From NCBI GenBank assembly GCA_028715905.1, contig JAQUQV010000002.1, positions 15,979-79,978 of the forward strand: DNA of 64,000 bases, written 5' to 3'. The position numbers and the translations under genes were made by a program. Position 1 is the first letter of the stretch, and each line of letters opens with the position of its first letter. The stretch comes from Kiritimatiellia bacterium (GTDB lineage: Bacteria; Verrucomicrobiota; Kiritimatiellia; JAAZAB01). Shown here piece by piece: positions 3,183 to 61,362 of this stretch. The notes under the pieces are model-generated. The model was given only the letters and a program-made list of their open reading frames with translations, was not told the origin of the DNA and did no database searches.

Positions 3183-3192
3183 ACGCATAAAA

Positions 3193-3263
3193 CCCGAATA
3201 TTGCGCGAAAATCGTGCAACATTCGCTTTCGCGCAAACGGGGATTGCCCGGCTTGAGCGAAAG
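3193..3263 (+). repeat. About 70-bp conserved intergenic element, copy B; its inverted partner is at 27127..27193
   Basis: cccgaatattgcgcgaaaatcgtgcaacattcgctttcgcgcaaacggggattgcccggcttgagcgaaag is about 85 percent identical to the reverse complement of 27127..27193. It contains a cgctttcgc...gcgaaag stem. Confidence 0.55.
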
Positions 3264-3270: not shown

Positions 3271-3350
3271 TTGAACATCTCCGCGGCCTGTTATTAAATG
3301 CCGTTTACGACAAATGGCGGCGCGGCCGCCGCAAGAGGAAACATTTTAAT

Positions 3351-7777: not shown

Positions 7778-8811
7778 GCGGACGCGGGCTGCGCCGTGAA
7801 TTTCCGATTATAGACCTGCCGGTAGTAATTCTGGTAGTCCCCGTTGCGCACCCGCTCCCACCAAGTCCGGTTGGCCAGATACCAGTCAACCGTCAAACGC
7901 AGGGCCTGTTCAAAACTGAACGCCGGCCGCCAGCCGAGTTCCGTCTCTATTTTTGCCGTGTCCATCGCGTAACGCCGGTCGTGTCCCGGGCGGTCGTTGA
8001 CGTATTTGATGAGCGTCTCCGGTTTATTCAGCAGTTTCAACAGCAGCCGGATTACCTCCAAATTGGGGACATCGTGCCGGCCGCCGATGTTATAAACCTC
8101 GCCGGGCCGGCCTTTCCGCAGAACCAAGTCAACGCCGCGGCAGTGGTCGCGGACATAAATCCAGTCGCGCACCTGTAAACCGTCGCCATAGACCGGCAGG
8201 GGCTTGTCTTCCATGGCATTGGCGATCATCAGCGGGATCAGTTTTTCCGGAAATTGATACGGCCCGAAATTATTTGAACAGCGGGTGATCACGGCGTTGA
8301 GCCCGTGGGATTTAACCGCGGACCGCACCAGGCAATCCGAGGCGGCCTTGGTGGCCGCGTAGGGATTGTTCGGCTGGAGGGGCGTCTCTTCCGAAAAACG
8401 GCCGCCGTTCTCCAGGCTGCCGTAGACTTCATCGGTGGAAACATGCACAAAGCGCGGCACGGAATACCCGCGGCAGGCGTCCAACAGACGCTGCGTGCCG
8501 GAAACATTGGTTGTAATAAAGGGCTGAACGTCAAGATGTATGCTGCGGTCAACATGAGTTTCGGCGGCAAAATGCACGACCGCATCAAACGCCTGCGCCT
8601 TGAACGCGGCCTGGATATCCTCCGGCGAGGCGATATCGCCCTTGAAGAAACGGTAACGGGAGTCCTTCTCAACCGGCGCCAGATTTTCAAGATTGCCGGC
8701 GTAAGTGAGCGCGTCAAAATTAACGATCTGGATATCGGCATGCTCCTGCAGCATGTAATGAATAAAATTGCTTCCTATAAAACCGGCCCCGCCGGTGACC
8801 AAGATCCTCAT
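7768..8811 (-). CDS. rfbB: dTDP-glucose 4,6-dehydratase
   Basis: The N-terminal MRILVTGGAGFIGS Rossmann motif, the YxxxK short-chain-dehydratase catalytic pair and full-length RmlB homology. I chose the start at MRIL (8811). Confidence 0.85.
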   Translation of the reverse strand: MRILVTGGAGFIGSNFIHYMLQEHADIQIVNFDALTYAGNLENLAPVEKDSRYRFFKGDIASPEDIQAAFKAQAFDAVVHFAAETHVDRSIHLDVQPFITTNVSGTQRLLDACRGYSVPRFVHVSTDEVYGSLENGGRFSEETPLQPNNPYAATKAASDCLVRSAVKSHGLNAVITRCSNNFGPYQFPEKLIPLMIANAMEDKPLPVYGDGLQVRDWIYVRDHCRGVDLVLRKGRPGEVYNIGGRHDVPNLEVIRLLLKLLNKPETLIKYVNDRPGHDRRYAMDTAKIETELGWRPAFSFEQALRLTVDWYLANRTWWERVRNGDYQNYYRQVYNRKFTAQPASAQR

Positions 8812-9275
8812 GGGCATCCCTTTCGCTTGTGTTCGCGGCAAGCCACCCCGGCCTGCCGCAGCAACGCCTTCGCCTGCCGGTTATACTGATACGCTTTCTC
8901 GTAAATCACTTTTTTTATGCCCGCGCTGATAATCATTTTGGCGCATAATAAACAGGGACTTTCCGTGCAATACAATACGGCCCCCCTCAAACCCACGCCG
9001 TAATGGGCGGCCTGGATAATGGCGTTTTCCTCCGCGTGCGCGCAAACGCACTCACCGAGGTTTTCCCCGGACCCGACATTGCTGGCACAACGCGGACAAC
9101 CGCCCTCATAACAGTTGCGGATGCCGCTCGGCGTGCCGTTATATCCGGTTGAAATAATGCGGTGATCCTTGACAATCACCGCCGCCACCTGCCGGCGCAA
9201 ACAGTTGCCGCGGGTCTTGACAACCCGGGCGATGTTCATGAAATAAGTGTCCCAGTCCGGCCGTTCCATATCCAA
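8808..9275 (-). CDS. Deoxycytidylate (dCMP) deaminase, zinc-dependent
   Basis: CMP/dCMP deaminase motifs HAEENA and PCxxC; 155 aa; 4-nt overlap with rfbB. Confidence 0.8.
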   Translation of the reverse strand: MDMERPDWDTYFMNIARVVKTRGNCLRRQVAAVIVKDHRIISTGYNGTPSGIRNCYEGGCPRCASNVGSGENLGECVCAHAEENAIIQAAHYGVGLRGAVLYCTESPCLLCAKMIISAGIKKVIYEKAYQYNRQAKALLRQAGVACREHKRKGCP

Positions 9276-9327: not shown

Positions 9328-9356
9328 TTGACATGATCCCAAAAATATCATAGTAT
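9328..9356 (+). promoter_or_regulatory. Near-consensus sigma70 promoter (TTGACA-N17-TAGTAT) driving the 9518/10216 cassette
   Basis: An exact TTGACA, a 17-bp spacer and TAGTAT sit in an AT-rich gap, about 160 nt upstream of the 9518 ATG. Confidence 0.55.
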
Positions 9357-9410
9357 TTTTTTATTGCCTGAATTTTGCGCAGAAGTTTAAATAAGACCGG
9401 CGGATCGCCA

Positions 9411-9446
9411 GCCGGGAAAGTTTTGGATGGCGGCGCTGCCGCCTTA
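9411..9446 (+). repeat. 36-bp conserved motif copy 1 (GCCGGGAAAnTTTyGGATGGCGGC-N2-3-GCCGCCTT)
   Basis: Near-identical copies at 19418..19455 and 38195..38228; all contain a GGCGGC/GCCGCC hairpin. Confidence 0.5.
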
Positions 9447-9517
9447 GGGTATTATCGGCAGGCGGCTTTCCGCCGCGCGGAAGCATACGAAAAACTCAAA
9501 CAAAGGAACAACCAGAC

Positions 9518-10186
9518 ATGAAAACAGGAAAAATATCAGTCGCATTAATGGCCGCGGTATTGATGCTCTCTGTCTATTGTTTTGCGGCGCCGGAGGCTCC
9601 CAAAGAAGTTACACTGGCCGCCGAGCAGGGGCTGCGGCCGTTTTTGAGTGAAATCGCGGATACGCCAGAGCAATTCGGCTTTACCGCCGGCGATGATTTG
9701 AACGCGGCCTCTCTCGGCGCCCCGTTCCAGCTCCATACCATCCCCCCTTCCGCCCTGGAAAAATATCAGGCCGGCATGACGGTGGCCTCCATGGTTACTC
9801 CGACCACGACCTGGTGGTTTCCCGTCCTGATCGCGGGCGAGCCCCGCGCCATGCTGCTCGTTGACCGGCTTGACGGCCGCTGGGAGGCGGTTTCGCTCGG
9901 CCACGCGGGCGTGGCGCAGGAATTGAGCGCATTCTGCCGGCAATGGAAAGCCGCGCAGGGATACCATCCGATGCTGATCGCCGTTTTCCAGGCAAAGCAA
10001 TTCCTGGTTTCCGTCCCGGAAAAGGACGCTTACAATCTTACGACTCTGACCATAAAGAACGCCCCGGAAATGGGCGCCAAACAGACGCCGGCCGTTGCCG
10101 ATTATGCCACGCTGGGAACGATTGATGACGCAATGAACCAGTTGAAACCGGTTGTGCGGGATGCCCTTAAAGGGTCTGACCAATAA
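9518..10186 (+). CDS. Secreted hypothetical protein with a signal peptide; first gene of the cassette
   Basis: N-terminal signal peptide MKTGKISVALMAAVLMLSVYCFA; an AAGGAA RBS; no recognisable domain. Confidence 0.6.
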   Translation: MKTGKISVALMAAVLMLSVYCFAAPEAPKEVTLAAEQGLRPFLSEIADTPEQFGFTAGDDLNAASLGAPFQLHTIPPSALEKYQAGMTVASMVTPTTTWWFPVLIAGEPRAMLLVDRLDGRWEAVSLGHAGVAQELSAFCRQWKAAQGYHPMLIAVFQAKQFLVSVPEKDAYNLTTLTIKNAPEMGAKQTPAVADYATLGTIDDAMNQLKPVVRDALKGSDQ

Positions 10187-10215
10187 TGCAATTCACAATA
10201 AGGAGGAAACGCATC

Positions 10216-11199
10216 ATGAATATTCGCCATTGCACGCCAAAGTTCATAGCCGTTGCCGTGATCAGCATCTTGACGGCAACGGGCGCCTGCCCGGGGGCCA
10301 AGCTGAACGTTCCCCAGTATAAACAGGAAAAGGACCAGTGGTGCTGGGACGCCGGCTCCCAGATGGTGCTGGCGTTCAAAGGGTATTCATATTCCCAGAC
10401 GGCCATCGCAAATTGGGCGGTCGGCGGCCGAAACATACCCAATTATCTTTACGGTTCCACTGATTCCAGCATGCACGGCTGCGACGAAATTCTCAAGCAT
10501 TTCGGCAATATCAGCAGTTCCGGCTCCGCGTCCCGGATGTCGCTGAACAATCTGAACACCGAAATAAACAACTCGCGCCCCGTCCTGATCCGCTATGGAT
10601 GGAACAGCGGCGGCGGACACATCGCCGTATTACGCGGGACTTCCGGCAGTTCGGTTTATGTGAATGACCCCTGGTACGGTCAGAGCCTGGTAAGCTATAA
10701 CTATGTGTGCCAGGCATACAACCAGGGTTCCTGGACGCATACCCTGAAACTCACCGGCGGCAGCAGCAGTTATTACCAATACGCCATGTATTATTACGGG
10801 CTTTACGGGCAATACTGGTCTGCCTATCAATCCACGGGCAGTTACTACTACCTGTCCTATGCCTATTACTATTACGCCTATGCCATCGGATATTATTACC
10901 TGTATTGCGGCGATTCTTCTTCCGCCAACTATTATTACAATTATTACATGCAGTACGCGCAGTATTATTACAACTTATATTACTACGCGTATTATTACTC
11001 GTATTATCACAATTATTACTCGTATTATTACAATTACTACCTCCGGACCGGCAGTTACGTGGCTCTGGCTTATGCCTATTATTATTACGCCTACGTTGAA
11101 TATTGTTACTACATGTATTACGGCAACAGTTCGTACGCCAATTACCTGTATAATTACTACATGTACTGGGCAAATTACGTCTACAACCACTATTGCTGA
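10216..11199 (+). CDS. Putative lipoprotein: a C39-like (papain-fold) cysteine peptidase domain fused to an extremely Tyr-rich tandem-repeat C-terminal region
   Basis: An AGGAGG RBS lies 9 nt before the ATG at 10216. The signal peptide ends in a lipobox-like TGAC. The QWCWDAGSQMVL...GGHIAVLRG...VNDPWYG arrangement resembles Peptidase_C39_2. Residues from about 175 to the end are roughly 45 percent Tyr, with two homologous units of about 47 aa (YAYYYYAY...G-SS-ANY-YNYYM). Confidence 0.65.
   Translation: MNIRHCTPKFIAVAVISILTATGACPGAKLNVPQYKQEKDQWCWDAGSQMVLAFKGYSYSQTAIANWAVGGRNIPNYLYGSTDSSMHGCDEILKHFGNISSSGSASRMSLNNLNTEINNSRPVLIRYGWNSGGGHIAVLRGTSGSSVYVNDPWYGQSLVSYNYVCQAYNQGSWTHTLKLTGGSSSYYQYAMYYYGLYGQYWSAYQSTGSYYYLSYAYYYYAYAIGYYYLYCGDSSSANYYYNYYMQYAQYYYNLYYYAYYYSYYHNYYSYYYNYYLRTGSYVALAYAYYYYAYVEYCYYMYYGNSSYANYLYNYYMYWANYVYNHYC
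10741..11190 (+). repeat. Coding low-complexity Tyr-codon (TAT/TAC) rich tandem repeat inside the 10216..11199 CDS
   Basis: Reiterated tattac/tattat codons with synonymous variation. The other two frames give I/T-rich and L-rich spurious ORFs. Confidence 0.6.
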
Positions 11200-14050: not shown

Positions 14051-16282
14051 CTAACCATCCGCGTCTTTTTCGGAGGAAAGCCCCTGTCCGGACTGCAGCC
14101 GTTTATAGAGCGCCTCAAGTTTTGCCTGGTAATAAAGGAGGTTTTCATCGCGTTTTGCCGGGCTCCACTCCGCGACCAGGCGGGCGGCCGCGTGCATGGC
14201 CACATTTTTTTTCGTGCCGGCAATATAATAGGAAACGTGGTCGCCGGCTTCGTAAGCGCGGCCCGAACGCAGGGCCAGCTCGTAGGCGGCGTTTCTGCCC
14301 CGGCCGCCTTTCGCGATTTTGGCCGCGTAAGTGGCGGGCGCATCCTTTAAGGTCTCGGTTTTGGCGAGTTCGGCGATTGCAAAACCGCCCTTGTTTATTT
14401 TTTCCCCGTATTGCGTTTTCAGCCCCGGAATTTCGGCGTCCCTGGATTCAAGTTTCAGACGCAGATAATCGCGCAGGAAAGAACGCAGATAGGGCTCAAG
14501 GCCGCGCGACTTCAAGGCGGCGCCCTTGATGATGATCTCGCCCTGGCCGGTCAAAAGGGCGTAATTTTTTATTTTATAACTGAACATGGCCGGATATTCG
14601 CCGTCAAATTCCAAATCAATGCCCGCGGGCAGGGCCGCGCTCAATTTTCCGCGGAATTTTTCCGCGTCATTTTCGGATTTAAACTCCGGCGGGACAAAAT
14701 AAATGCCGTCGGTATCGGCCTCCACCGGATCCGCGCCGTTTTTTTTGAGCCAGTTGATGATGTCCTTGATTATGGCCCGCCCCTCGGCGGCAACCCGCTC
14801 GGCGGCGTTGAAATCATTGAAACGCGCCTGGGCGAAACCCAGGTAGCCGTAAAACGAGTTGATCAGTATTTTGAACGCGCTTTGCAGGGAATCAAAACGA
14901 TGCTTCTCGGCCGGGGATTTGCTCTGCCGCATTTTCCGTTTGACTTCAAGGCGGTATTCGCGGAAATAGGCAAGCATCTGCGGAAAAAGCCCGAGTTCAT
15001 CGCGGTCCGGCGCTATTTTGCTGACGAGCATGATGGATGGATACAGGGAGCTGACGTCGCAATGGTGGACGTTGCGGATGACGCCTTCCCGGAATATATC
15101 GGTGTAACCGCCCTCAAATTTCCGCGCTTTTCCCGGATACGGCAGGGCCGCTGTCCGGCGCAGATAAGCGCGCAGGAGAAGGGCGTCAATCTTGGCGGCG
15201 TTGCCGCGCAGGCAGATGTTCTGATAACTGAAGGGCAACACCCCGGCCTGGACAAAATAAGTGCGCGAGAGCAGATTGCTCAAGGCGGCGATTTCGCGGA
15301 CATCATCGCGCGCATAGCGGGCAACGCGCTCCGGATTGCGGTCAAATTCCCCGGAAATCCGGTCGCCCTCAATATAAACCCGTCCGCCGGATGCCAGCCC
15401 GAAATGGCGCGCCGCCGCCTTCAGGCTGAGGCTTTCCAGCGAGCGGCGCGCCAGATCATAGGCCTGCAGGAGGAAATAAGTGTCAACGACGTGCCGGCCG
15501 TATATTTCGGGCTTGGCGAAAGAAACCATTCTTTCGCCGAGCGCAAACCGGCTGGGGTGCGACCGCATTGTTTCCCCGCCGCGCCCCAGCTTTAAATCAA
15601 CCTTATGCCGCTCGGCGCGGGCGGAAATGTAAGGCAGGTCAAACTTGAAAATATTGTGGCCTTCTATTACGTCCGGGTCGCGTTCGCGCACGCGCGCGAC
15701 AAAATTTTTCAACAGCTCTTTTTCGCCGCCCGGCCCCTCCGCGAGGATTTCCTCCCAGCCGGCGCTGTCGCGCATGGCGATGATGATGATCCGGTCTTCG
15801 GCGCGGAAAGGATTGCTGAATTCAAAACCCGGCGCGGTATGGGTTTCAATGTCTATCTGCATCCGGCGCACATCCTCAAAGTCCATGCCCTTGAAAAAGG
15901 TGCGGCCCGAAGAAACCAGGTGCTGGTGCACGGGATCGTTAAGCATGATAAAAGGCGCGTCGGGCGCGCCGGCGGTTTTGCCCGTTTTCTGGACCAGCCG
16001 CTTTTTCGCCCGCTCCCATTCCGGCCAGGATTGGAAAGAGACGGCAATTTTAAGCGGGCCGCCGCCCGCCAGCTTTTGAATCGTGAACTTGCCGTCCAGA
16101 CCCTCCAGCAGATTTTCGTTTTCAACGATCATGAAAGGCCGGAAAGGCGCGCCGCGCTTGCTGACTCCGGTTTTTCCCCGGGAAAAAACCACAACCCGAC
16201 AAGGATCAGACCCGCAGTCCGCCTCAACCGCCACGATTTTTTCCTCGGGATTGTGCCCGAAAACCAATTCGCTGTTAATCAT
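14051..16282 (-). CDS. polB: Family B DNA polymerase (Pol II-like) with 3'-5' exonuclease
   Basis: Exo motifs DIET, FDLPY and YARDD. Pol motifs A DVSSLYPS, B KILINSFYG and C DTDG. 743 aa. Confidence 0.8.
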   Translation of the reverse strand: MINSELVFGHNPEEKIVAVEADCGSDPCRVVVFSRGKTGVSKRGAPFRPFMIVENENLLEGLDGKFTIQKLAGGGPLKIAVSFQSWPEWERAKKRLVQKTGKTAGAPDAPFIMLNDPVHQHLVSSGRTFFKGMDFEDVRRMQIDIETHTAPGFEFSNPFRAEDRIIIIAMRDSAGWEEILAEGPGGEKELLKNFVARVRERDPDVIEGHNIFKFDLPYISARAERHKVDLKLGRGGETMRSHPSRFALGERMVSFAKPEIYGRHVVDTYFLLQAYDLARRSLESLSLKAAARHFGLASGGRVYIEGDRISGEFDRNPERVARYARDDVREIAALSNLLSRTYFVQAGVLPFSYQNICLRGNAAKIDALLLRAYLRRTAALPYPGKARKFEGGYTDIFREGVIRNVHHCDVSSLYPSIMLVSKIAPDRDELGLFPQMLAYFREYRLEVKRKMRQSKSPAEKHRFDSLQSAFKILINSFYGYLGFAQARFNDFNAAERVAAEGRAIIKDIINWLKKNGADPVEADTDGIYFVPPEFKSENDAEKFRGKLSAALPAGIDLEFDGEYPAMFSYKIKNYALLTGQGEIIIKGAALKSRGLEPYLRSFLRDYLRLKLESRDAEIPGLKTQYGEKINKGGFAIAELAKTETLKDAPATYAAKIAKGGRGRNAAYELALRSGRAYEAGDHVSYYIAGTKKNVAMHAAARLVAEWSPAKRDENLLYYQAKLEALYKRLQSGQGLSSEKDADG

Positions 16283-16396: not shown

Positions 16397-19300
16397 CTAC
16401 AACCCCACGTCCATCCGGACCTTTGGAAACTGGGTGAACCAGAACTGGAGCCAGACCGTGAAATCGTCGTCGGTTTGCTGTTCAACCCCGATTTTGGTGA
16501 CGATGCAATCCATGGTCTTCTGGACCGTGAAACCGTATGCTTCCATGTGCTGGTCGTGGAAATCATAGCGCAGATAAATGCTGTAGGCCCAGTTGGCGAA
16601 GGGCGAGAGTTTAAGCTCGTTGTTCAGCAGGCTGTTGCTGTCCTGAAGGTAACGGTGTTCAACCTCGTAACGCCAGGCCGGGTCATCAAAAACGGCCAGG
16701 CGCGTGTTAATGGTATGGAATTTTCTCTCATACTGGTCAAACTCGCCGTCCACGTACAGTTCCATGCCGTCAACCGGCGCGGAACGGATGTCATAGCTTA
16801 TATTCTTGAACAGGTTTTGATTTTTTTCCGGCGCGATCCGATAGGAGGTCCAGATATCGGCATTAATCAGGTCGGCGACCACATAACTGCGCGAAGAAGG
16901 GGAGAGTTTGCCGAAACGCTGGGTCTGGATTTTATTCCGCATCCCGAATTTAACCTCGTTCAGCTTGCCGCGCTCGTCAATGCTGTCAAACTGGTAGAGA
17001 TTGGAACTGAGGACGTTCGGCTCCGGCGTGAAAGAATAATCGGCGTAAGGCTCGGCGATATGCCGGATATGATTAATGACCGTGCCCGGGTACGTTTCCC
17101 AGACCTTGAACGCCTTGAAGGAGGTCTCCACGCCCAGCTTCGGCATGGAGCGGAACTGCGCGTCGCCGGCGCGGGTGAAGACATTGGTGGTTATTTTTGT
17201 TTTCGTTACGCCGTTGGTGTCCAAATAGGAAGTTGTGGTGATATTGGTGTAATAGTCGCAGCCGGCCGAATAAAAAGTGCCGTCCCATCCGGCGCGCGGG
17301 ATGATATTCAGGAAGCCGAACTGCTTGGTGGGATAATAAATTGTATTGGGGGTGTCAAACCGGAAAACGGAGTAATCCGTCCGGTTGGTATATTTTTTCT
17401 CCCACTCCTTTGAAAGATAACCGAGGGTGTGCTTGCCTTCATAGTAAAAGGGCGTGTCCCAGATCTGCTGGCGGGTGAAATCCAGGGTGGCTTCCGGCAG
17501 ACGGTTGACGGTCGTGTAAAAATCGTTCAGCCTCTGCCGGAACAGCAGACTGGCCGAATAATATCTGCCGCGCCGGCCGAGGACAAGGTAATTATCCGGT
17601 TCCGGGTCGGTTTTATACTGTTGGCGGAAGAAATGCTCAACCAGATAGGGGTCGCTGAGATAATCGGCCTGCAACATGAGATAATCGCGCTCGTCAAGAT
17701 TATGGTTGTGCGACAAGCGCACCCGGTAGCGGTCCTCGGGAACGGCATAGTCATACTCATTGCCTTCGTCCGGCCAGAGGTCGTGGGCATAGTAAGTGAT
17801 CAGGTCGCCGCTCCATTGATCATCTTCCTCCTCTTCGGGATGTTCCCAGCGGTTCATGGAGCGCATTCCGAAAGACCAGGGCTCGTCTTCCAGCTCGCCC
17901 ATGTATTTTTCGGTGGAAAGCCCCTTGGCGTTGCCGCTGGATGACCAGAGGATGTCCTGGCCGACGGCGACGCCGCGCCGGGCGCGCAGGTCAATATGCG
18001 ACTTGGCCTCTATATGGCGGCTGATCCGGTAATTAAAGGTCGTGAGCAGAAATGCCCACATGCGGCTGTTGTAACCGGGCACCATACTGATGAAATTCGG
18101 GTCGCCTATATTCTGGGCCCAGTAAGGACTGTACATGATCGGCACCCCACCCACGTAGAGGGTTACATGGCGGGCATAGACGTGCCGGCCGGGAATAATC
18201 CGGGCGCTTTTGACCCGGAAAAAAGCCCGCGGGTGTTCGCCTTCGCAGGTTGAGAGCACGGCATCCTTGAGCAAATATTCATTTTCGCTGATGCGCTTGG
18301 AAGACTCGGCGTGGACATAGAAAGGCTCCATGTAGGCCGAAAAAACGCCGAAATCGCCTTTTTTGGAGCGAAAGTTATAGCGCAGTTTTTTGCCGATCCA
18401 GACGTCGCTGCCGCTTTCAAACTGCACGTTGCCCTCGGCGAGGACATCGTATGAATCAAGATTCATGATCGCATGGTCGCCGCGCAACAGTTCGTCGCCT
18501 TTCTGCAGGCGGACATGGCCCGCGGCGATGATCAGATTGCTGGCGCTGTCAAATTCAAGACTGTCCGCGCGCATATCCAGCGGCACGGCTTCTATGGGGG
18601 TAATACAGCCGGGATACGCTTCCTCCAGCAGATAGCGGTTGAGCCTGACCAGCGCCAGTCCGGCCGCCTGTTGTTCAACAAGGCCCTTGGTGCGCGCCGA
18701 AAGTTTCACCGCCGCAAAGCGTTCTTCTTCATAAAACCGGTCGCTCTGCAGAATAATATTCAGTCCGTTCGCCAGATTTTCACGGAAATTGGAAGGGGGC
18801 GGAAGCGCGGGGTCATATTCGCGCAATTGCCGCCGCACAGTTTCGGAGAAATGGTCGCGCAGATAGGCCGAAACCGGGTCTTTTGCCTCGCGCAGTTTGA
18901 CCGCAAAATCCGGCAGGTTCAACAGGTCCGAAGGCCCCAGCATCCAGGCCCGTTCCGGCCGGCCGGCGATTTCATTGGAAAAAATCTCCTCCAGCACCAT
19001 CCGGTTCAGATGCATGCGCTCATAACCGCGCGGGTTCTGGCTGATCAGGCTCCGGGCGGTAACGGAGAGTTCGGCCCTTTGCAGAACCGGTTCCTGGCAC
19101 CATTCCGATTCCACGATAACGCGGTTTAAATCGGCGAGAAGGGACTGGCGCAGCTCATCGCCGGGCGGATTAACGCCGTCGTAATCGGCCAGCAGGCGCT
19201 CTGTTTTTTCCGAGAAAAAATCGCGGAGGCAGACGGAAACATCGTCGGCTTGCTCGTTCAGCCGGATCGCCAGGGCCCGGCCGTCAATCACATCGTTATC

Positions 19301-19471
19301 GCGCAACATCCAGATATTGTCCGCGACTGCCGCCGGGCCGGCGCCCTTCGCCGACGCAACGGCAAGACAGGCTGAAAACAGCAAAACGATAAATGCGCCC
19401 CGGGCGGAGAGGGCGCCGCCGGCGGCAAATTCTGGATGGCGGCGCAGCCGCCCTGTAAGTTGGGCATTCAC
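16397..19471 (-). CDS. lptD: LPS-assembly outer membrane protein LptD (OstA) with a long duplicated N-terminal extension
   Basis: OstA-N-like region (LIIAAGHVRLQKGDELLRGDHAIMNLDSYDVLAEGNVQFESG) followed by a large beta-barrel-like C-terminus. 1024 aa versus about 780 for typical LptD. Two homologous roughly 100-aa segments in the first 300 aa (VCLRDFFSEKTERLLADYD... and AYLRDHFSETVRRQLREYD...). Confidence 0.75.
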   Translation of the reverse strand: MNAQLTGRLRRHPEFAAGGALSARGAFIVLLFSACLAVASAKGAGPAAVADNIWMLRDNDVIDGRALAIRLNEQADDVSVCLRDFFSEKTERLLADYDGVNPPGDELRQSLLADLNRVIVESEWCQEPVLQRAELSVTARSLISQNPRGYERMHLNRMVLEEIFSNEIAGRPERAWMLGPSDLLNLPDFAVKLREAKDPVSAYLRDHFSETVRRQLREYDPALPPPSNFRENLANGLNIILQSDRFYEEERFAAVKLSARTKGLVEQQAAGLALVRLNRYLLEEAYPGCITPIEAVPLDMRADSLEFDSASNLIIAAGHVRLQKGDELLRGDHAIMNLDSYDVLAEGNVQFESGSDVWIGKKLRYNFRSKKGDFGVFSAYMEPFYVHAESSKRISENEYLLKDAVLSTCEGEHPRAFFRVKSARIIPGRHVYARHVTLYVGGVPIMYSPYWAQNIGDPNFISMVPGYNSRMWAFLLTTFNYRISRHIEAKSHIDLRARRGVAVGQDILWSSSGNAKGLSTEKYMGELEDEPWSFGMRSMNRWEHPEEEEDDQWSGDLITYYAHDLWPDEGNEYDYAVPEDRYRVRLSHNHNLDERDYLMLQADYLSDPYLVEHFFRQQYKTDPEPDNYLVLGRRGRYYSASLLFRQRLNDFYTTVNRLPEATLDFTRQQIWDTPFYYEGKHTLGYLSKEWEKKYTNRTDYSVFRFDTPNTIYYPTKQFGFLNIIPRAGWDGTFYSAGCDYYTNITTTSYLDTNGVTKTKITTNVFTRAGDAQFRSMPKLGVETSFKAFKVWETYPGTVINHIRHIAEPYADYSFTPEPNVLSSNLYQFDSIDERGKLNEVKFGMRNKIQTQRFGKLSPSSRSYVVADLINADIWTSYRIAPEKNQNLFKNISYDIRSAPVDGMELYVDGEFDQYERKFHTINTRLAVFDDPAWRYEVEHRYLQDSNSLLNNELKLSPFANWAYSIYLRYDFHDQHMEAYGFTVQKTMDCIVTKIGVEQQTDDDFTVWLQFWFTQFPKVRMDVGL
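19418..19455 (+). repeat. 36-bp conserved motif copy 2, overlapping the lptD start codon region
   Basis: gccggcggcaaattctggatggcggcgcagccgccctg; compare 9411..9446 and 38195..38228. Confidence 0.45.
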
Positions 19472-19665
19472 TCTCTTATGCTGTCAAAAAATGCGTTTAA
19501 GACTGCAGCCGGCCGTTTGCGGCCGATTGCCGATTTCAGCCGGCGCTTGTCTTTCTCCGTTTTTCACCCGACCGCGCGCGATTTCATTTCTTTTATCACC
19601 TCAACGCGGTTTGACCAAGCATATTCTCCGATCTTCCGGCAAACCGGAGGCGCGGCGGAAGAGCA

Positions 19666-26979: not shown

Positions 26980-27016
26980 ATTTCAGTCCTTTGAAAATTA
27001 TTACTGTTTGGAGTAA

Positions 27017-27044
27017 AAATTATGCAAAAACCAGTGATTGTCAA
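27017..27044 (-). promoter_or_regulatory. Sigma70-like promoter for mreB (TTGACA-N16-TAATTT, minus strand)
   Basis: An exact -35 hexamer lies about 60 nt upstream of the mreB ATG. Confidence 0.45.
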
Positions 27045-27074
27045 TAAATAAAATCAGAAAAAGCGGGCGCCCGC
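27045..27074 (-). terminator. Terminator-like GC hairpin (GCGGGCGCCCGC) followed by a T-run on the minus strand, just upstream of the mreB promoter
   Basis: A perfect 6-bp palindromic stem is followed on the minus strand by TTTTTCTGATTTTATTT. Confidence 0.35.
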
Positions 27075-27126
27075 ATAACGGGTGCAAACGGCGTGCAGCC
27101 GCGTTGCGGCCTACGTCGCTCACGTC

Positions 27127-27193
27127 TTTCGCTGGCGGGCAATGCCCGCCTGAGCGAAAGCGAATATTGCACGAAATTCGCGCAATATTCGGG
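27127..27193 (-). repeat. About 70-bp conserved intergenic element, copy A; inverted partner of 3193..3263
   Basis: Its reverse complement aligns with 3193..3263 at roughly 85 percent identity. It has a cgctttcgc...gcgaaag stem enclosing a ggcgggca/tgcccgcc hairpin. Confidence 0.55.
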
Positions 27194-27588
27194 TGATACA
27201 ACTTTGTGACAACAAGGAGGTTCATTATGCATTTCTTGAACGGCATACCGAGGACATTCTCGGCGCCTATTCGTGTTTTGACCGGATCATCATCCAAGGC
27301 GCCCTGCCCGACATTGCCCATGCGGACGCTATCACGCAGTGGTTCTTCTGGCATGATAAACTCACCCATCGCACCTTTTTCCGTTACGACACCGGCCGCT
27401 GTGTCCACTACTGTAACGGGCACAACTGGCTGGCCCGCCGTATGACCAGGGCCGGCATTTCCTTCACGCAAGTGAATTACTATGTTGAAGCAGATTTGCA
27501 ATATTATTCCGGGACATCTTGTGAACAAGCCAAGGCTGTGTTACCCCTGGGGGTAACACAGCCTTGGAACATTACCGAAAAAGAGTAA
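27193..27588 (+). CDS. Hypothetical small protein with a GTG start (low confidence)
   Basis: A 131-aa ORF of protein-like composition. However, an AAGGAGG RBS sits 6 nt upstream of an ATG (27228) in a different frame, encoding a 72-aa S/T/P-rich peptide. The coding status is unresolved. Confidence 0.25.
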   Translation: MIQLCDNKEVHYAFLERHTEDILGAYSCFDRIIIQGALPDIAHADAITQWFFWHDKLTHRTFFRYDTGRCVHYCNGHNWLARRMTRAGISFTQVNYYVEADLQYYSGTSCEQAKAVLPLGVTQPWNITEKE

Positions 27589-27665: not shown

Positions 27666-28880
27666 ATGAATATACAAGAATCAATATTGGACGGTAATTC
27701 TAAAATTCCCAAGTATTTCCAATTAAAGAATATTTTATTGCAACAGATATTGGAAAAGAAAGCGGACGAAAGATTTTACTCGGAACGCGAGTTGGCAGCC
27801 TTATACAAGGTAAGCGTATTTACAGCGCGCCAGGCGCTGGCCGAACTGGTCAAGGGGGAAAAACTGGTCAGATTACATGGTAAAGGCACCTTTATTGCCA
27901 ATCATTCAAAAACAATAAAGCTGGAAGACGCCAGAATCGGCTTGGCATGGCAAGAGGACATAGAAGTGAATGGTGTTGTTTTTACATACGAGATATTGAA
28001 TCTAATGGCCGACTGCGACCGCCGGCATATACATTTGTCAACCTTTACCTATCCCAGGCAGGGATTGCGTAATTCTGCCTGCCTGTTGCGCAATATGTTG
28101 GATCAAAAGCGGTTGGATGCGCTGTTGATCTATTGTGTTCCCCTTGATATTGGCGATATAGCATGGCTTCAAGACAGACAGGTTCCGTTCATATTGGCAG
28201 GAACAGACCTTTTTGAGGACAATATATTTAGTGTCATGGGAGATGTTTTTGAGGGAATACGCATGGCAATGAATCATCTGGCCGAACTGAAACACACCCG
28301 GATTGGCCTAGTCAACACCGCGATGAATAATTATCTCAAGGCAACGGCCGTTTTGGGATATCGTTCGGCTCTGGACAAGCGTGATATTCCCTTTAAGCCG
28401 GAGTTGATTATAGATATGCCGTACGGCGAAGATATAGATCTTGGCCGATTTGACAAGTGGGTGGAGGCTGCGCGTCCGACCGGCATTCTAACGGTGGAAG
28501 AGGTAATGGCACTGGGAGTTATGAAAAGACTTTTGTGCACCGGTAAATCCGTGCCCGGAGATATCTCGGTGATCGGATACAGCGACCGGCTGCCTCCTTC
28601 GTGTTACCCGGTATCCCTGACCACGATAGACACCCGGATTCGCATTCAGAATCAAAAGACGCTGGATTTATTAAGCGATATGATCAGCGGCAAGCCTGTG
28701 CAACAACAGCATGTCAAGATTGCGCCGGAACTGGTTGTGCGCTCATCAACCGCCGTTTGTCCTTCCTTTTCATATGAACAACAAATTGATCATCCGGAAA
28801 AATATTCCGCAGCGGCCAAAGCCGTCACGGAACCAGGGTATAATCGGAGGCAAATATGCAAGACGCCGCAAGAATATTAA
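27666..28880 (+). CDS. Transcriptional regulator with a GntR-type HTH N-terminus and a LacI/periplasmic-binding-protein-like sugar-binding C-terminus (AraR-like architecture)
   Basis: GntR winged-helix signature ERELAALYKVSVFTARQALAELVKGEKLVRLHGKGTFIA, then a PBP-like domain of about 300 aa. Low-GC gene. Confidence 0.65.
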   Translation: MNIQESILDGNSKIPKYFQLKNILLQQILEKKADERFYSERELAALYKVSVFTARQALAELVKGEKLVRLHGKGTFIANHSKTIKLEDARIGLAWQEDIEVNGVVFTYEILNLMADCDRRHIHLSTFTYPRQGLRNSACLLRNMLDQKRLDALLIYCVPLDIGDIAWLQDRQVPFILAGTDLFEDNIFSVMGDVFEGIRMAMNHLAELKHTRIGLVNTAMNNYLKATAVLGYRSALDKRDIPFKPELIIDMPYGEDIDLGRFDKWVEAARPTGILTVEEVMALGVMKRLLCTGKSVPGDISVIGYSDRLPPSCYPVSLTTIDTRIRIQNQKTLDLLSDMISGKPVQQQHVKIAPELVVRSSTAVCPSFSYEQQIDHPEKYSAAAKAVTEPGYNRRQICKTPQEY

Positions 28881-29809: not shown

Positions 29810-30016
29810 AATTGAGAAAAGAATGCCGGGGAAAGCCGGCAAAGAAACGTGCGTGATTGTGAACGCATAACGGCGGTGATTGCGGACGGTATTGCGGAAC
29901 AGGCTGAAAATCGCAAAAACAACCGGTTCGGCTTTCGCAAACTTTTGGGCGATGCCAACCCGTCATGCCATAGGCAGATATCCGCCTCTGGCGGAAAATT
30001 AATCATTCGGAAAAAC

Positions 30017-30046
30017 ATTCCTTGACGGCCAAAGCTGTCAAGGAAT
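30017..30046 (+). promoter_or_regulatory. Perfect 10-bp inverted repeat ATTCCTTGAC-N10-GTCAAGGAAT immediately upstream of the 30059 gene; candidate operator
   Basis: The palindrome ends 12 nt before the ATG and is followed by an AGGAG RBS. Confidence 0.4.
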
Positions 30047-30058
30047 CAGGAGCCTTGC

Positions 30059-36806: not shown

Positions 36807-38111
36807 TTGACGATGAAAAGATTATTACTGGTTGCGATGGGACTTTTGGTTGCGGCGGCCTGTCCGGGGGCCATGCATTACGTGGTGACGAACGGGACGC
36901 CGGGATGGACCGGCGCTGTTGATCCCTACACCAACTGGGCCACGGCCGGAACAAATATTATTGACGTGGTCAATGCCGCCATGACCAACGACGAACCAAG
37001 ACTGGTGCTAGTCTCCAACGGCACGTATTATCTGACCAACCAGGTGCTGATAACCAACGCCCTGACAATCCGCGGGGTCAAAGGCCGGGAGGCAACGATT
37101 GTGGATGGAGGATACGGGATGCCGACGAACACCTATGGGGGATGTTTTTATCTCTTATCGGGTGGCGGTGCGAAGACGTTGGATGGGTTTACGATTACTA
37201 ACGGATGTGCAACTTCAGGCGGTGGTGTTTATATGGCCAACGATGTCAGTAATACTGTTAAAAATTGTCGGATAACAGGGTGCGTGGCTACCAATACGTT
37301 TGGCAGTCTGGCCAGCGGGGGTGGGGCTTATGTCTGGCGTGGAGTTATGACCAATTGTGAAGTTATTGGGAACATTAACTATAACTGCTATGGCGGAGGA
37401 ATTCTTCTGCGACGCGGTATAGTTGCGAGCTGTGTCGTTGCTCAAAACACGGTATACCAGGGAAAAACAGGGAATGAAGTTACGGGCGGCGGAATACATA
37501 CTTTTGAATCTACTAGTTCCATTAATAATTGTGAAATTTATAGTAATGAAGTTGTCGGCACCTATCTAATAGGCAGCGGCGTGGCCTTGAAGGACAATGC
37601 GGTTTTGCGTAATTCGCTAATCTATGGCAACATGGGCCAGCATGCAGTGTCTATCTATAATACAGGGGGAAAAGTTCAGAATTGCACAATAGTAGGTAAT
37701 AAGGCTGGAGGAATTTATCTTTATGCTGCTTCTACATATACCGGTTGTATTGAAAATGTCGTCAGTTATTTCAATGTGGGATCGTCTGATAGTAATGTTT
37801 ATTTTAATTCCAACGGCAAAGGTTCTTACCAAATAATCAACAGCTGCATTGCGCCCACTAACACCTTTCCGACCAGTGGAATCGAGGGATATTATTACGC
37901 CGGTAATATTGAGTCCGATCCACAGCTCGCGGATAAGGACAATAATAATTTTCGACTGGCGCAGGATTCTCCCTGCGTCAATGCCGGCACGAACCAGGAA
38001 TGGATGACGAACGCGGTTGATCTGGACGGCGCCGCGCGCATCCGCTACGGCCGGGTGGACATGGGCGCCTATGAACGCATCTATCACGGCGTCGTCTACG
38101 GCGTGCGATAA
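36807..38111 (+). CDS. Secreted right-handed parallel beta-helix repeat protein with a choice-of-anchor-Q-type C-terminus
   Basis: Signal peptide. G/N/T-rich beta-helix rungs (NCxIxGN repeats). C-terminal DLDGAARIRYGRVDMGAYE motif. Confidence 0.6.
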   Translation: MTMKRLLLVAMGLLVAAACPGAMHYVVTNGTPGWTGAVDPYTNWATAGTNIIDVVNAAMTNDEPRLVLVSNGTYYLTNQVLITNALTIRGVKGREATIVDGGYGMPTNTYGGCFYLLSGGGAKTLDGFTITNGCATSGGGVYMANDVSNTVKNCRITGCVATNTFGSLASGGGAYVWRGVMTNCEVIGNINYNCYGGGILLRRGIVASCVVAQNTVYQGKTGNEVTGGGIHTFESTSSINNCEIYSNEVVGTYLIGSGVALKDNAVLRNSLIYGNMGQHAVSIYNTGGKVQNCTIVGNKAGGIYLYAASTYTGCIENVVSYFNVGSSDSNVYFNSNGKGSYQIINSCIAPTNTFPTSGIEGYYYAGNIESDPQLADKDNNNFRLAQDSPCVNAGTNQEWMTNAVDLDGAARIRYGRVDMGAYERIYHGVVYGVR

Positions 38112-38194
38112 AACCTGATGGCAAGCCTAAAGGGCGTGTTGCCCAAACGATGAAAAAGAGAATAACGCCGGCGAACGGGACGCGGGGAATATTT

Positions 38195-38228
38195 GCCGGG
38201 AAATTTTCGGATGGCGGCCTGCCGCCTT
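38195..38228 (+). repeat. 36-bp conserved motif copy 3
   Basis: gccgggaaattttcggatggcggcctgccgccttgg; compare 9411..9446. Confidence 0.5.
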
Positions 38229-39505: not shown

Positions 39506-39694
39506 AAAGGAATTTGAAATTTCTCTCGGCTTCGGTACGCAGGAGGAAATCAACGAATCAATTCAGTTAATCGAGAAGCACTTCTGAGTTTCGGCATAAA
39601 GAAACACACAAAACAGATGTTTTGCCAGACTGTCTCCAGCGCGCTGGGCGCGCTTCCAGTAGTGGGTGATCTTTAACGTTTGGAGAAGGAAATA

Positions 39695-40699
39695 ATGCAG
39701 ACGAACATGCAGAATGGGGAGACGAGAGGAGAAATCGTTATTTACCGGGCGAAGGATGGGCGGACCAGCCTGGAAGTCAACCTGCATCAAGAGACCGTCT
39801 GGCTGACACAGTCCCAAATGATTGATCTGTTCCAGAGGGATCAATCGGTCATTTCGCGTCATATTCATAACGTGTTCAAAGGAGGAGAGTTGCATCCGCA
39901 AAGCAATATGCAAAAAATGCATATTGCCGGGTCAGATAAACCCGTGGTGATGTACAGTTTGGACATGATCATCTCAGTCGGTTACCGGGTTAACTCCCGG
40001 CGTGGCACGGAGTTCCGCATATGGGCAACGCAAGTCCTCAAAGACCATATTCTTAAAGGATATACGGTCAACGAAAAGAGACTGCGTGAACAGGCAACGC
40101 GATTCAAAGAACTACAAGAAGCCGTTGACCTGATGGGCCGGATCATGCAAGACCGGCAATTGGCAGGTAACGAAGCAGAAGGTCTGCTCAAGATCATTGC
40201 CAACTACTCGTTGGCTCTGTCGCTTCTTGATCAGTATGACCATCGGCAATTGGCGTTTCGTGACACCACCTTGACAACGTCTTTTGTTATGACATACGAG
40301 TTGGCCAAGAAAGCCATTGCAAAGTTGGCGGAACAGTCGCCGTTTGGTGGCGGGCTTTTCGGTCAGGAGAAAGACGCGTCCTTTAAAGGTTCGCTTGGCG
40401 CCATTTATCAAACTTTCGGCGGGCACGAGCTTTACCCAAGTATTGAGGAAAAAGCGGCTCATCTTTTATATTTCGTGATCAAGAACCATTCTTTTGCCGA
40501 CGGCAATAAACGGATTGCCGCCTTCTTGTTCGTCTGGTTCATGGACGCTAACCGGATTCTGTACCGGAAAGACGGGACCAAACGCATCGCAGATAATGCG
40601 CTCGTCGCGCTTACACTCCTGATCGCGGAAAGCAAGCCGAAGGACAAGGATATCATCGTCAAAGTGTTGGTGAATCTGATTAATAGAGGAAATGTTTGA
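39695..40699 (+). CDS. RhuM-family protein with a C-terminal Fic/Doc domain (Doc-type HxFxDGNKR motif)
   Basis: RhuM-like N-terminus (GEIVIYRAKDGRTSLEVNLHQETVWLTQSQMIDLFQRDQSVISRHIHNVFKGGEL). The Fic/Doc active-site motif HSFADGNKRIAA. A GGAG RBS lies before the ATG at 39695. Confidence 0.7.
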   Translation: MQTNMQNGETRGEIVIYRAKDGRTSLEVNLHQETVWLTQSQMIDLFQRDQSVISRHIHNVFKGGELHPQSNMQKMHIAGSDKPVVMYSLDMIISVGYRVNSRRGTEFRIWATQVLKDHILKGYTVNEKRLREQATRFKELQEAVDLMGRIMQDRQLAGNEAEGLLKIIANYSLALSLLDQYDHRQLAFRDTTLTTSFVMTYELAKKAIAKLAEQSPFGGGLFGQEKDASFKGSLGAIYQTFGGHELYPSIEEKAAHLLYFVIKNHSFADGNKRIAAFLFVWFMDANRILYRKDGTKRIADNALVALTLLIAESKPKDKDIIVKVLVNLINRGNV

Positions 40700-60113: not shown

Positions 60114-60460
60114 CCTGAATTCTTCCGCTCGTTTTGCTTTTTATATTCCCTGAAGCTATCAACCAACTGCCTGAATGAGACAGGCTTGAATTTCTCAAAG
60201 CTTTCCCGGTCCACATAAACAAAGTCGTATTTCACATCCGATTGCACATGGTTGATACGGCCCCAAGGACAGAGAGGATCCCCTTCTTCTCTTTGACTTT
60301 GGCGGACAGTCGCTTGACTACAGCATCGGCGACACGGCTGATGATCGTTTGCACGAATATGATGACACATGCAAGGCAGAGGTAGAACAGCCATTTTTCG
60401 GGTTCCGTGACCAACTTCTTGAATAGCTCGCCATCCATGATGTTTTTTCCTCATCCCCAA
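60110..60460 (-). pseudogene. Possible frameshifted small membrane-protein gene, split across two frames
   Basis: The 60232..60438 frame encodes a TM-containing N-terminus. The 60110..60460 frame encodes a hydrophilic C-terminus (VKYDFVYVDRESFEKFKP...). The frames switch around 60255..60290. Confidence 0.3.
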
Positions 60461-60467
60461 CCATTGC

Positions 60468-60545
60468 TTAACAGAATCTTTTGATCTGACAATTTGCGAT
60501 TGAGCCTTTGATCGGTCAAATTGACCGATGTCATTATCAAATTAT
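60468..60545 (+). repeat. 78-bp direct repeat R1; partner R2 at 61275..61352
   Basis: Identical 19-bp and 23-bp ends (ttaacagaatcttttgatc ... attgaccgatgtcattatcaaat) with a divergent palindromic centre. Confidence 0.55.
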
Positions 60546-60661
60546 TTGAGGATATAGTAGGCATTCGTCATGCAGAGTCAACGGCAAACTACATCCTGAC
60601 GGCGTGTGGTAATACACCCAGAAGGGCATGTGGGGAACGAAGCCGCCGCCATCTGTGGCCT

Positions 60662-61221: not shown

Positions 61222-61274
61222 TGCCTATCTTTTGTCAATATCATTGTTTATCTGGTCTGGTCCGCACAGATTGA

Positions 61275-61352
61275 TTAACAGAATCTTTTGATCCGGCAAC
61301 TTGCTATTGAACCTCCGCCACGGGCGGATTGACCGATGTCATTATCAAATCA
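61275..61352 (+). repeat. 78-bp direct repeat R2
   Basis: See R1 above. It lies 54 nt upstream of the brnT start. Confidence 0.55.
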
Positions 61353-61362
61353 TTTATTTCTT

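Follow-up and report, generated by a model that had tools for sequence, protein, structure and literature searches.

A short, probably REP-like hairpin repeat in an uncultured Kiritimatiellia bacterium, with one copy inserted in frame in an LptD-like gene

A hairpin motif of 34-38 nt occurs in three full copies, each on the plus strand, in the window analysed here (the whole 64-kb stretch of DNA) from an uncultured Kiritimatiellia bacterium. We consider it probable that this motif forms the conserved core of a REP-type repeat, which is short, dispersed and lineage-specific. Underlying this reading are the non-random repetition of the motif, for which zero copies are expected, a structural pattern of constraint, its restriction to one Kiritimatiellia lineage with absence from relatives, one insertion event at a site that is filled here and empty elsewhere, a preference for non-coding or tolerant DNA, and the occurrence of other palindromic repeats in the clade.

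Copy 1 (GCCGGGAAAGTTTTGGATGGCGGC-GCT-GCCGCCTTA) lies at 9411-9446, copy 2 (GCCGGCGGCAAATTCTGGATGGCGGC-GCA-GCCGCCCTG) at 19418-19455 and copy 3 (GCCGGGAAATTTTCGGATGGCGGC-CT-GCCGCCTT) at 38195-38228, confirming the positions given in a preliminary description of this DNA and placing all three on the plus strand. The core, GGATGGCGGC-N1-5-GCCGCC, matched three times in the window and not once in 100 dinucleotide-preserving shuffles, in agreement with the earlier view that chance GC-rich sequence does not account for it. The 24-nt 5' arm was found as an exact match to a degenerate pattern at sites 1 and 3, with no occurrence expected by shuffling. To score the copies we built a covariance model from all three and searched the whole window with filters off. 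Note that the score in this search is dominated by sequence conservation. Copies 1, 2 and 3 scored 61.8, 54.9 and 59.5 bits, respectively, and the next-best match in the window reached 16.4 bits. This gap of ~40 bits (55-62 versus 16 bits) indicates a discrete family without a cloud of degenerate copies, rather than an oligomer bias. The 16.4-bit match is local and may be a partial or degenerate copy, AATGGCGGCGCGGCCGCC (AATGGCGGC-GCG-GCCGCC; 3312-3330, plus strand). It shares 16 of 18 bases with the hairpin half of copy 1, is without the 5' arm and is located 21 nt 5' of the ATG of a Wzz-like gene. The three full copies differ by 10-20%, indicating that any spread was not very recent.

In ungapped register the motif reads GG[A/C]AA-N-TT-YY-GGATGGCGGC-N2-3-GCCGCC-YT (also written as the pattern GGMAANTTYYGGATGGCGGC-N2-3-GCCGCC). 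GGAT and both 6-nt stem arms (GGCGGC/GCCGCC, forming a perfect 6-bp stem) are identical across the copies; thus, none of these 16 columns varies, compared to ~8 of 22 elsewhere. The loop is GCT, GCA or CT (3, 3 and 2 nt, respectively), and this variable spacing of the half-sites is more in line with a hairpin loop than with a duplex operator bound by a dimer. The constraint pattern across the copies is structural, and the asymmetric flank and hairpin form a real constrained unit, as had been proposed from the first reading: stems and GGAT are invariant, while the loop varies in length and sequence. The 5' arm could form a second, weaker and imperfect hairpin (CCGGGA/UYYYGG) that includes G-T/G-U pairs. 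Only two of its paired positions vary, both as U/C opposite G, and in the plus-strand register 97% of cells pair. The preliminary description had suggested a test of covariation within the stem; no compensatory change was present at any pair among the three copies, too few sequences to show covariation convincingly. The fold energies of the copies were not better than those of shuffles. The window had no Rfam match at the gathering threshold, with the three regions giving only chance-level hits (E of at least 0.3).

A second module is found upstream of every copy on the plus strand: CCGGCGGA at 9397-9404, 6 nt 5' of the motif, CGGGCGGA at 19401-19408, at the left edge of a 57-nt insertion (see below), and CCGGCGAA at 38168-38175, 19 nt 5' of the motif. 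The 8-mer CCGGCGRA is thus common to the three upstream flanks with at most one mismatch, 6-19 nt before the motif; a shared 8-mer of this kind arises in ~1% of GC-matched random triples. Because CCGGCGRA is present in all flanks and the module of site 2 is located at the edge of the insertion, the full element probably measures ~50-61 nt, with the upstream module as its left part and a variable internal spacer. On the plus strand, the order of the unit is CCGGCGRA, a spacer of 6-19 nt, GCCGG-GAAANTTYY, GGAT, GGCGGC, the loop of 2-3 nt, GCCGCC and YT. No conservation among the three sites was detected beyond ~60 nt.

Site 2 provides the insertion event. Copy 2 had been described as lying over the lptD start region on the opposite strand. 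The strand assignment is correct, but the copy is actually inside the coding sequence, antisense to a minus-strand gene for a 1024-aa protein and spanning codons 5-23, and the LptD identity is weak. The 1024-aa protein matched the NCBIfam chlamydial CT351 outer-membrane barrel model (9e-9) and LptA (0.009), with no Pfam match, and its gene is located downstream of the RNase G gene (rng). From these matches, the LptD-like identity appears plausible. A search anchored on RNase G recovered 80 related loci, about a dozen of them at 79-87% RNase G identity, and in these relatives the order rng, ~1000-aa gene, family-B polymerase is kept. In the window, the family-B DNA polymerase gene is found at 14051-16282.

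DNA alignment combined with N-terminal protein alignment against six relatives located a net in-frame insertion of 57 nt (19 codons; LTGRLRRHPEFAAGGALSA) at 19403-19459 on the minus strand, with boundaries of +/- a few nt, which contains copy 2. The protein encoded in the window begins MNAQ-LTGRLRRHPEFAAGGALSA-RGAFIVLLF. In the relatives, M-x-x-x leads directly into R/K-x-x and the hydrophobic core, for example MDIQRPNVFILSF and MDFQRLKYFLIF. Site 2 is thus filled in the window lineage and empty in six relatives. The start context common to the relatives is GTG-(G/A)AT-nnn-CAR. If the alignment were anchored on the RBS-like ATAAGRR instead, the start codon itself would be new and the motif-bearing insertion would still hold. 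The position of the insertion corresponds to the signal-peptide n-region of the conserved LptD-like protein. The GC-rich 57-nt segment has no stop codon in any of the three reading frames, so an insert could be accommodated whenever its length is divisible by three. Five relatives share with the window a promoter-like block, GCTTGGTCAAAC..GTGATAAAAG (also GCTTGGTCAAAC...GTGATACAAA), located 5' of the LptD-like gene (19590-19620 in the window, minus strand), suggesting that copy 2 is inside the mRNA. This block, which contains TTGGTC-N17-TAAAAG, is a candidate native promoter motif of the clade.

The other two copies are in intergenic DNA, which makes up 8.7% of the window, and copy 2 is at the extreme 5' end of its coding sequence. 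Site 1 lies in a 242-nt divergent gap between a dCMP-deaminase/ComEB-like gene (8808-9269, minus strand) and an ORF on the plus strand (9518-10186; 222 aa, unknown), with copy 1 ending 72 nt before the ATG of the latter. This ORF is followed by a Peptidase_C70 ORF (10186-11199), the C-terminal half of which (10770-11110) is Tyr-rich and carries TTATTAC-type repeats. A 5' UTR location had been assigned to copy 1. This is plausible, as judged from a sigma-70-like promoter match upstream (TTGACA-17-TAGTAT; 9328-9356, plus strand), which is a match to consensus alone. Site 3 starts 84 nt past the stop codon of a beta-helix gene (ending at 38111), and 179 nt separate the end of copy 3 from the nspC ATG (38408), against ~175 bp estimated earlier. 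The nspC call is based on TIGR01047 at 402 bits, slightly below the 409-bit cutoff; the closest non-self relative of the window NspC shares 79% protein identity. The placement of the organism in the Kiritimatiellia was taken from the source organisms given for nspC homologues. A Fic/RhuM gene (39680-40699) is located between nspC and the gene for carboxynorspermidine dehydrogenase, as it is in L214-216, and is absent from that position in L125, L217 and L220. In the window and in L217, an AbiEii toxin gene follows the norspermidine pathway.

We next consider the distribution of the motif. Elsewhere the same species is represented only by short contigs, from Logan (SRR16642462/68/69 and SRR22315506) and from JGI sample 3300037067. 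Wherever such a contig spans a site, the motif copy is identical: copy 1 in JGI contig L223, copy 2 in Logan contig L129 and copy 3 in L124 and L121-123. Across 945 kb of loci from related Kiritimatiellia, the best match to the covariance model reached 18.5 bits, and the model found no motif in a further ~150 kb around the nspC genes of three other distinct relatives. The motif is absent from the 270-400 nt upstream of nspC in three distinct relatives, a fourth having no upstream spacer at all, and it is absent at or inside the orthologous LptD-like gene region, including the rng junction, in six relatives. A pattern fitting all three copies had no match in 241 M metagenome records, a collection that does not contain this species (L124 is absent from it) and therefore speaks for relatives only. 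A scan of viral contigs for the full motif returned no match. The loose pattern GGCGGCN{1,5}GCCGCCATCCRRAA, applied to a genome collection, gave at least 120 matches in GC-rich genomes that are attributable to chance. Most of these had a coding-like context, and among the matches listed none carried the 5' arm. One sequence from Nonomuraea jabiensis (L072, 505-545; GCCGGCGAAtcctcGAAATTTTTCGGATGGCGGCCCGCCGCC) resembles site 3 together with an upstream module (GCCGGCGAA). It was unsupported by the model and was set aside as a coincidence.

The short-read assemblies behave unusually at two of the sites. Independent Logan assemblies (contigs L224, L225, L127, L128 and L121-123) break at identical bases, in or just before copies 1 and 3. 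Two of the assemblies stop at 9410 and resume at 9419, leaving GCCGGGAA unassembled, and three, represented by L121-123, begin at 38166, which is 2 nt 5' of the module that precedes copy 3. JGI contigs L223 and L124 span the breaks at 9410/9419 and 38166 with identical sequence. This suggests that the breaks reflect branching of the assembly graph, due to further copies or to differences between alleles within the element.

Other short palindromic repeats came to light in the relatives through within-locus BLAST and an nhmmer profile. One further REP-type repeat, GCCATAGGCAGATATCCGCC-TCT-GGCGGAAAATT, is present in the window at 29966-30000 (plus strand; nhmmer E=5e-5). It is the one window copy of a GTAG-tagged family, (G)TAGGCGGATCCGCC-NNN-GGCGGAAAATTTC, also rendered as (G)TAG-GCGGATCCGCC-NNN-GGCGGAAAATTTC or GGCGGATCCGCC-NNN-GGCGGAAAATTTC, which occupies non-orthologous intergenic sites in four relatives (L220, L144, L133 and L138). 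Copies are found in L220 at 9857-9890, 14473-14506 and 18262-18295, in L144 at 18101-18131 and in L133 at 8691-8745, and classic units of GTAG plus hairpin also occur in L144 and L220. In L220, two of the three copies precede polyamine decarboxylase genes, namely nspC and a gene for a second PLP decarboxylase. Intergenic DNA of L144 at 17996-18262 is dense in GTAG-plus-hairpin units and includes one REPIN-like inverted doublet (GTAGAGCCGG..CCGGCT / AGCCGAC..GTCGGCTCTAC). More generally, the window contains 20 GGCGG/CCGCC hairpins compared to ~1.5 in shuffles; 30% of them are intergenic, a three-fold enrichment.

The GTAG family and the motif share an architecture, with a GRAAATTT(T)C box, a linker of 4-7 nt, GGCGG, 2-3 nt, CCGCC and T, collinear and in one orientation. 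In contrast to the motif, the family forms part of a longer composite repeat, is marked by a genuine GTAG tag and contains three GGCGG/CCGCC arms. Profile searches in both directions did not connect the two. Judging from the shared layout, a common origin is possible.

The window also contains longer repeats. Two direct copies of a 55-nt repeat (82% identity; 28783-28837 and 29996-30050) contain the palindrome CGGAAAAATATTCCG and are located just 5' of GH130 and GH42-like genes, near a GntR/Peripla_BP_3 regulator (27666-28880), making them a candidate operator pair. A 59-nt repeat (88% identity) is inverted, with one copy at 3192-3250 (plus strand) upstream of the Wzz-like gene and the other at 27136-27194 (minus strand) upstream of mreB. 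A 175-aa ORF over the second of these copies (27001-27528) has no Pfam match and may be spurious. Repeats of ~95 nt (81-89% identity) at 60454-60547 and 61261-61355 lie 5' of small gene pairs, RHH/PemK toxin-antitoxin among them, and the second adjoins a TCCGCC-ACG-GGCGGA hairpin (61314-61328).

How does the motif compare to known repeats? REPs are stem-loops of 20-40 bp that usually carry a GTAG or CGTC tag and are often species-specific (Di Nocera et al. 2013, PMC3733652). They are known in PVC bacteria (Opitutus), some copies are intragenic, N-termini of genes included, and untagged REP-like families are recognised as well (PMC3733652). The motif resembles a REP in being a GC-rich stem-loop of this size (34-38 nt against 20-40 nt) with conserved unpaired flanks and a variable loop. 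It is likewise dispersed, mostly extragenic (two of three copies), species-specific and occasionally intragenic and in frame. In contrast to REPs, it has no GTAG or CGTC tag, the bases adjacent to the stem being GGAT on the plus strand and TAAG, CAAG or CAGG on the complement, and it possesses an additional A/T-containing arm (GAAANTTYY) and the upstream module. REPs number tens to thousands per genome; the count for the motif, three full copies and one partial, refers to 64 kb alone. The proposed replicative unit of REPs is a RAYT-mobilised doublet, the REPIN (Bertels & Rainey 2011, PMC3116915). Whereas a REPIN is an inverted pair of REPs forming a long hairpin, the three copies here are same-strand singletons with no inverted partner nearby. 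A further comparison is offered by the Rickettsia palindromic elements, which are about 100-150 bp long. They belong to an unrelated lineage and are unrelated in sequence, and only one of the three copies here is intragenic. Nevertheless, copy 2 is like them in being a palindromic insert that is in frame and spares the gene (PMC3733652).

In the REP-like reading, the copies would have arisen by copy-and-paste inside this lineage. The likely agent would be a trans-acting enzyme that recognises the hairpin and its invariant flanking bases on single-stranded DNA, in the manner of the RAYT and IS200-IS605-type tyrosine transposases that act on REPs. In a REPIN-RAYT system, the repeats flank the gene of their cognate RAYT, a Y1 HUH transposase. 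No transposase or RAYT was present among the ~40 larger ORFs of the window scanned with Pfam. Copies would persist at places where a hairpin is nearly harmless, either between genes or, at site 2, as 57 stop-free nucleotides in frame in a tolerant n-region. Effects on the host are probably incidental: one operon would have gained a stable GC hairpin in its 5' UTR, the inter-operon spacer before nspC would have gained another, and a third would be in the LptD-like gene at codons 5-23, 19 nt into the coding sequence. A repeat of this sort may nonetheless bind a protein, for example its transposase, or fold in RNA.

The main rival to this reading is a species-specific cis-regulatory site, an operator or a 5'-leader RNA, serving the operon of ORF222 and the C70 peptidase, the LptD-like gene and nspC. 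All copies are within ~200 nt of a gene start (72 nt, codons 5-23 and 179 nt), copies 1 and 2 are probably both transcribed given the sigma-70-like match before the one and the conserved block before the other, and the absence of variation in the 16-nt core implies that its sequence or structure is under selection. The two polyamine decarboxylase genes of L220, one of them nspC, are moreover preceded by similar-looking elements. However, neither the LptD-like and nspC sites of the relatives nor ~1.1 Mb of related DNA contain the motif, it is sense to the gene at sites 1 and 3 and antisense within the coding sequence at site 2, and one copy had to insert in coding sequence. A half-site spacing that varies between 2 and 3 nt is suited to a hairpin loop but not to an operator bound by a dimer. 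The genes next to the three copies have no functional relationship to one another, and there is no Rfam match, no compensatory covariation and no fold energy beyond that of shuffles. We therefore regard a regulatory site as unlikely, and the proposal of the preliminary description, a protein-binding site or structured RNA, is not supported in the sense of one tied to the neighbouring genes, in view of the absence at orthologous sites, the inconsistent orientation and the lack of an Rfam family. Several more specific functions were rejected. A sigma-54 promoter (GG-N10-GC) fits site 3 only, sites 1 and 2 having N11 through the loop indel, and for an ECF promoter spacing and register are inconsistent across this indel. 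Leader peptides starting from the ATG in GGATGG would differ in frame and length (6 codons for copy 1, 111 aa for copy 2 and 33 codons for copy 3). An intrinsic terminator would lack a U-tract 3' on the plus strand; the minus strand of sites 1 and 2 carries terminator-like hairpins, where site 1 has no upstream minus-strand gene to terminate and site 2 is in signal-peptide codons. An origin-proximal parS-like site was considered in view of a switch in both GC skew and gene orientation near 27.6 kb; no dnaA, dnaN or parAB is near this position, and the half-site spacing is variable. Judged by reading the sequence, the motif had no consensus features of attC, a CRISPR repeat or dif.

Alternatively, the copies might be decayed fragments of a larger mobile element, such as the solo ends of a MITE or of an IS200/IS605-type PATE, or hairpins from the interior of one, with the 36-nt unit itself not mobile. 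The conserved module upstream with its variable spacer would fit this, as would the additional GGCGG-type hairpins beside copy 1 (9461-9474), the composites of ~100 nt or more in the relatives (GTAG hairpin, CAAAG, hairpin, CTAACT.., GGAAATTTCC, GGCGGATCCGCC) and the breaks of the Logan assemblies at or within copies 1 and 3. But conservation between sites stops at ~60 nt, the whole insertion at site 2 is 57 nt, and no terminal inverted repeats or target-site duplications are recognisable. A MITE, with TIRs, a TSD and a length of about 100-400 bp, differs from the motif in these respects, the extent here being at most ~60 nt and the site 2 junctions being free of TIR and TSD. Fragments of a larger element are thus an improbable source. 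As for a mere compositional coincidence of GC-rich oligomers, for instance through GGCGGC/GCCGCC codon bias, GGCGG/CCGCC hairpins are indeed common in the window, coding DNA included, and unrelated GC-rich genomes yield many matches to the loose core pattern, most of them in sequence that looks coding. Taken together with its A/T-containing arm, however, the motif did not occur in shuffles, the model separates the copies from all else by ~40 bits, and the arm is in none of the loose-pattern matches listed. The probability of coincidence is accordingly close to nil.

A more far-reaching interpretation is that the motif represents an undescribed class of GGAT-flanked double stem-loops of Kiritimatiellota, spread by a non-RAYT enzyme and possibly co-opted by the host. 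We consider this quite improbable. If true, one protein- or RNA-recognised module would be placed in the leader of an envelope or secreted-protease operon, in the first codons of an LptD-like gene and before the norspermidine pathway, coupling envelope and polyamine genes and remodelling a signal peptide.

For practical purposes, annotation as a regulatory site or RNA gene should be avoided for this motif. It marks break points of short-read assemblies for this species and could serve as a strain or species marker. If the REP-like reading is correct, the Kiritimatiellia, a poorly studied class of PVC bacteria, would join the carriers of REP-like repeats, and site 2 would be a clean filled-versus-empty case of such a repeat residing in frame in the signal-peptide sequence of a gene for an outer-membrane protein of an essential type.
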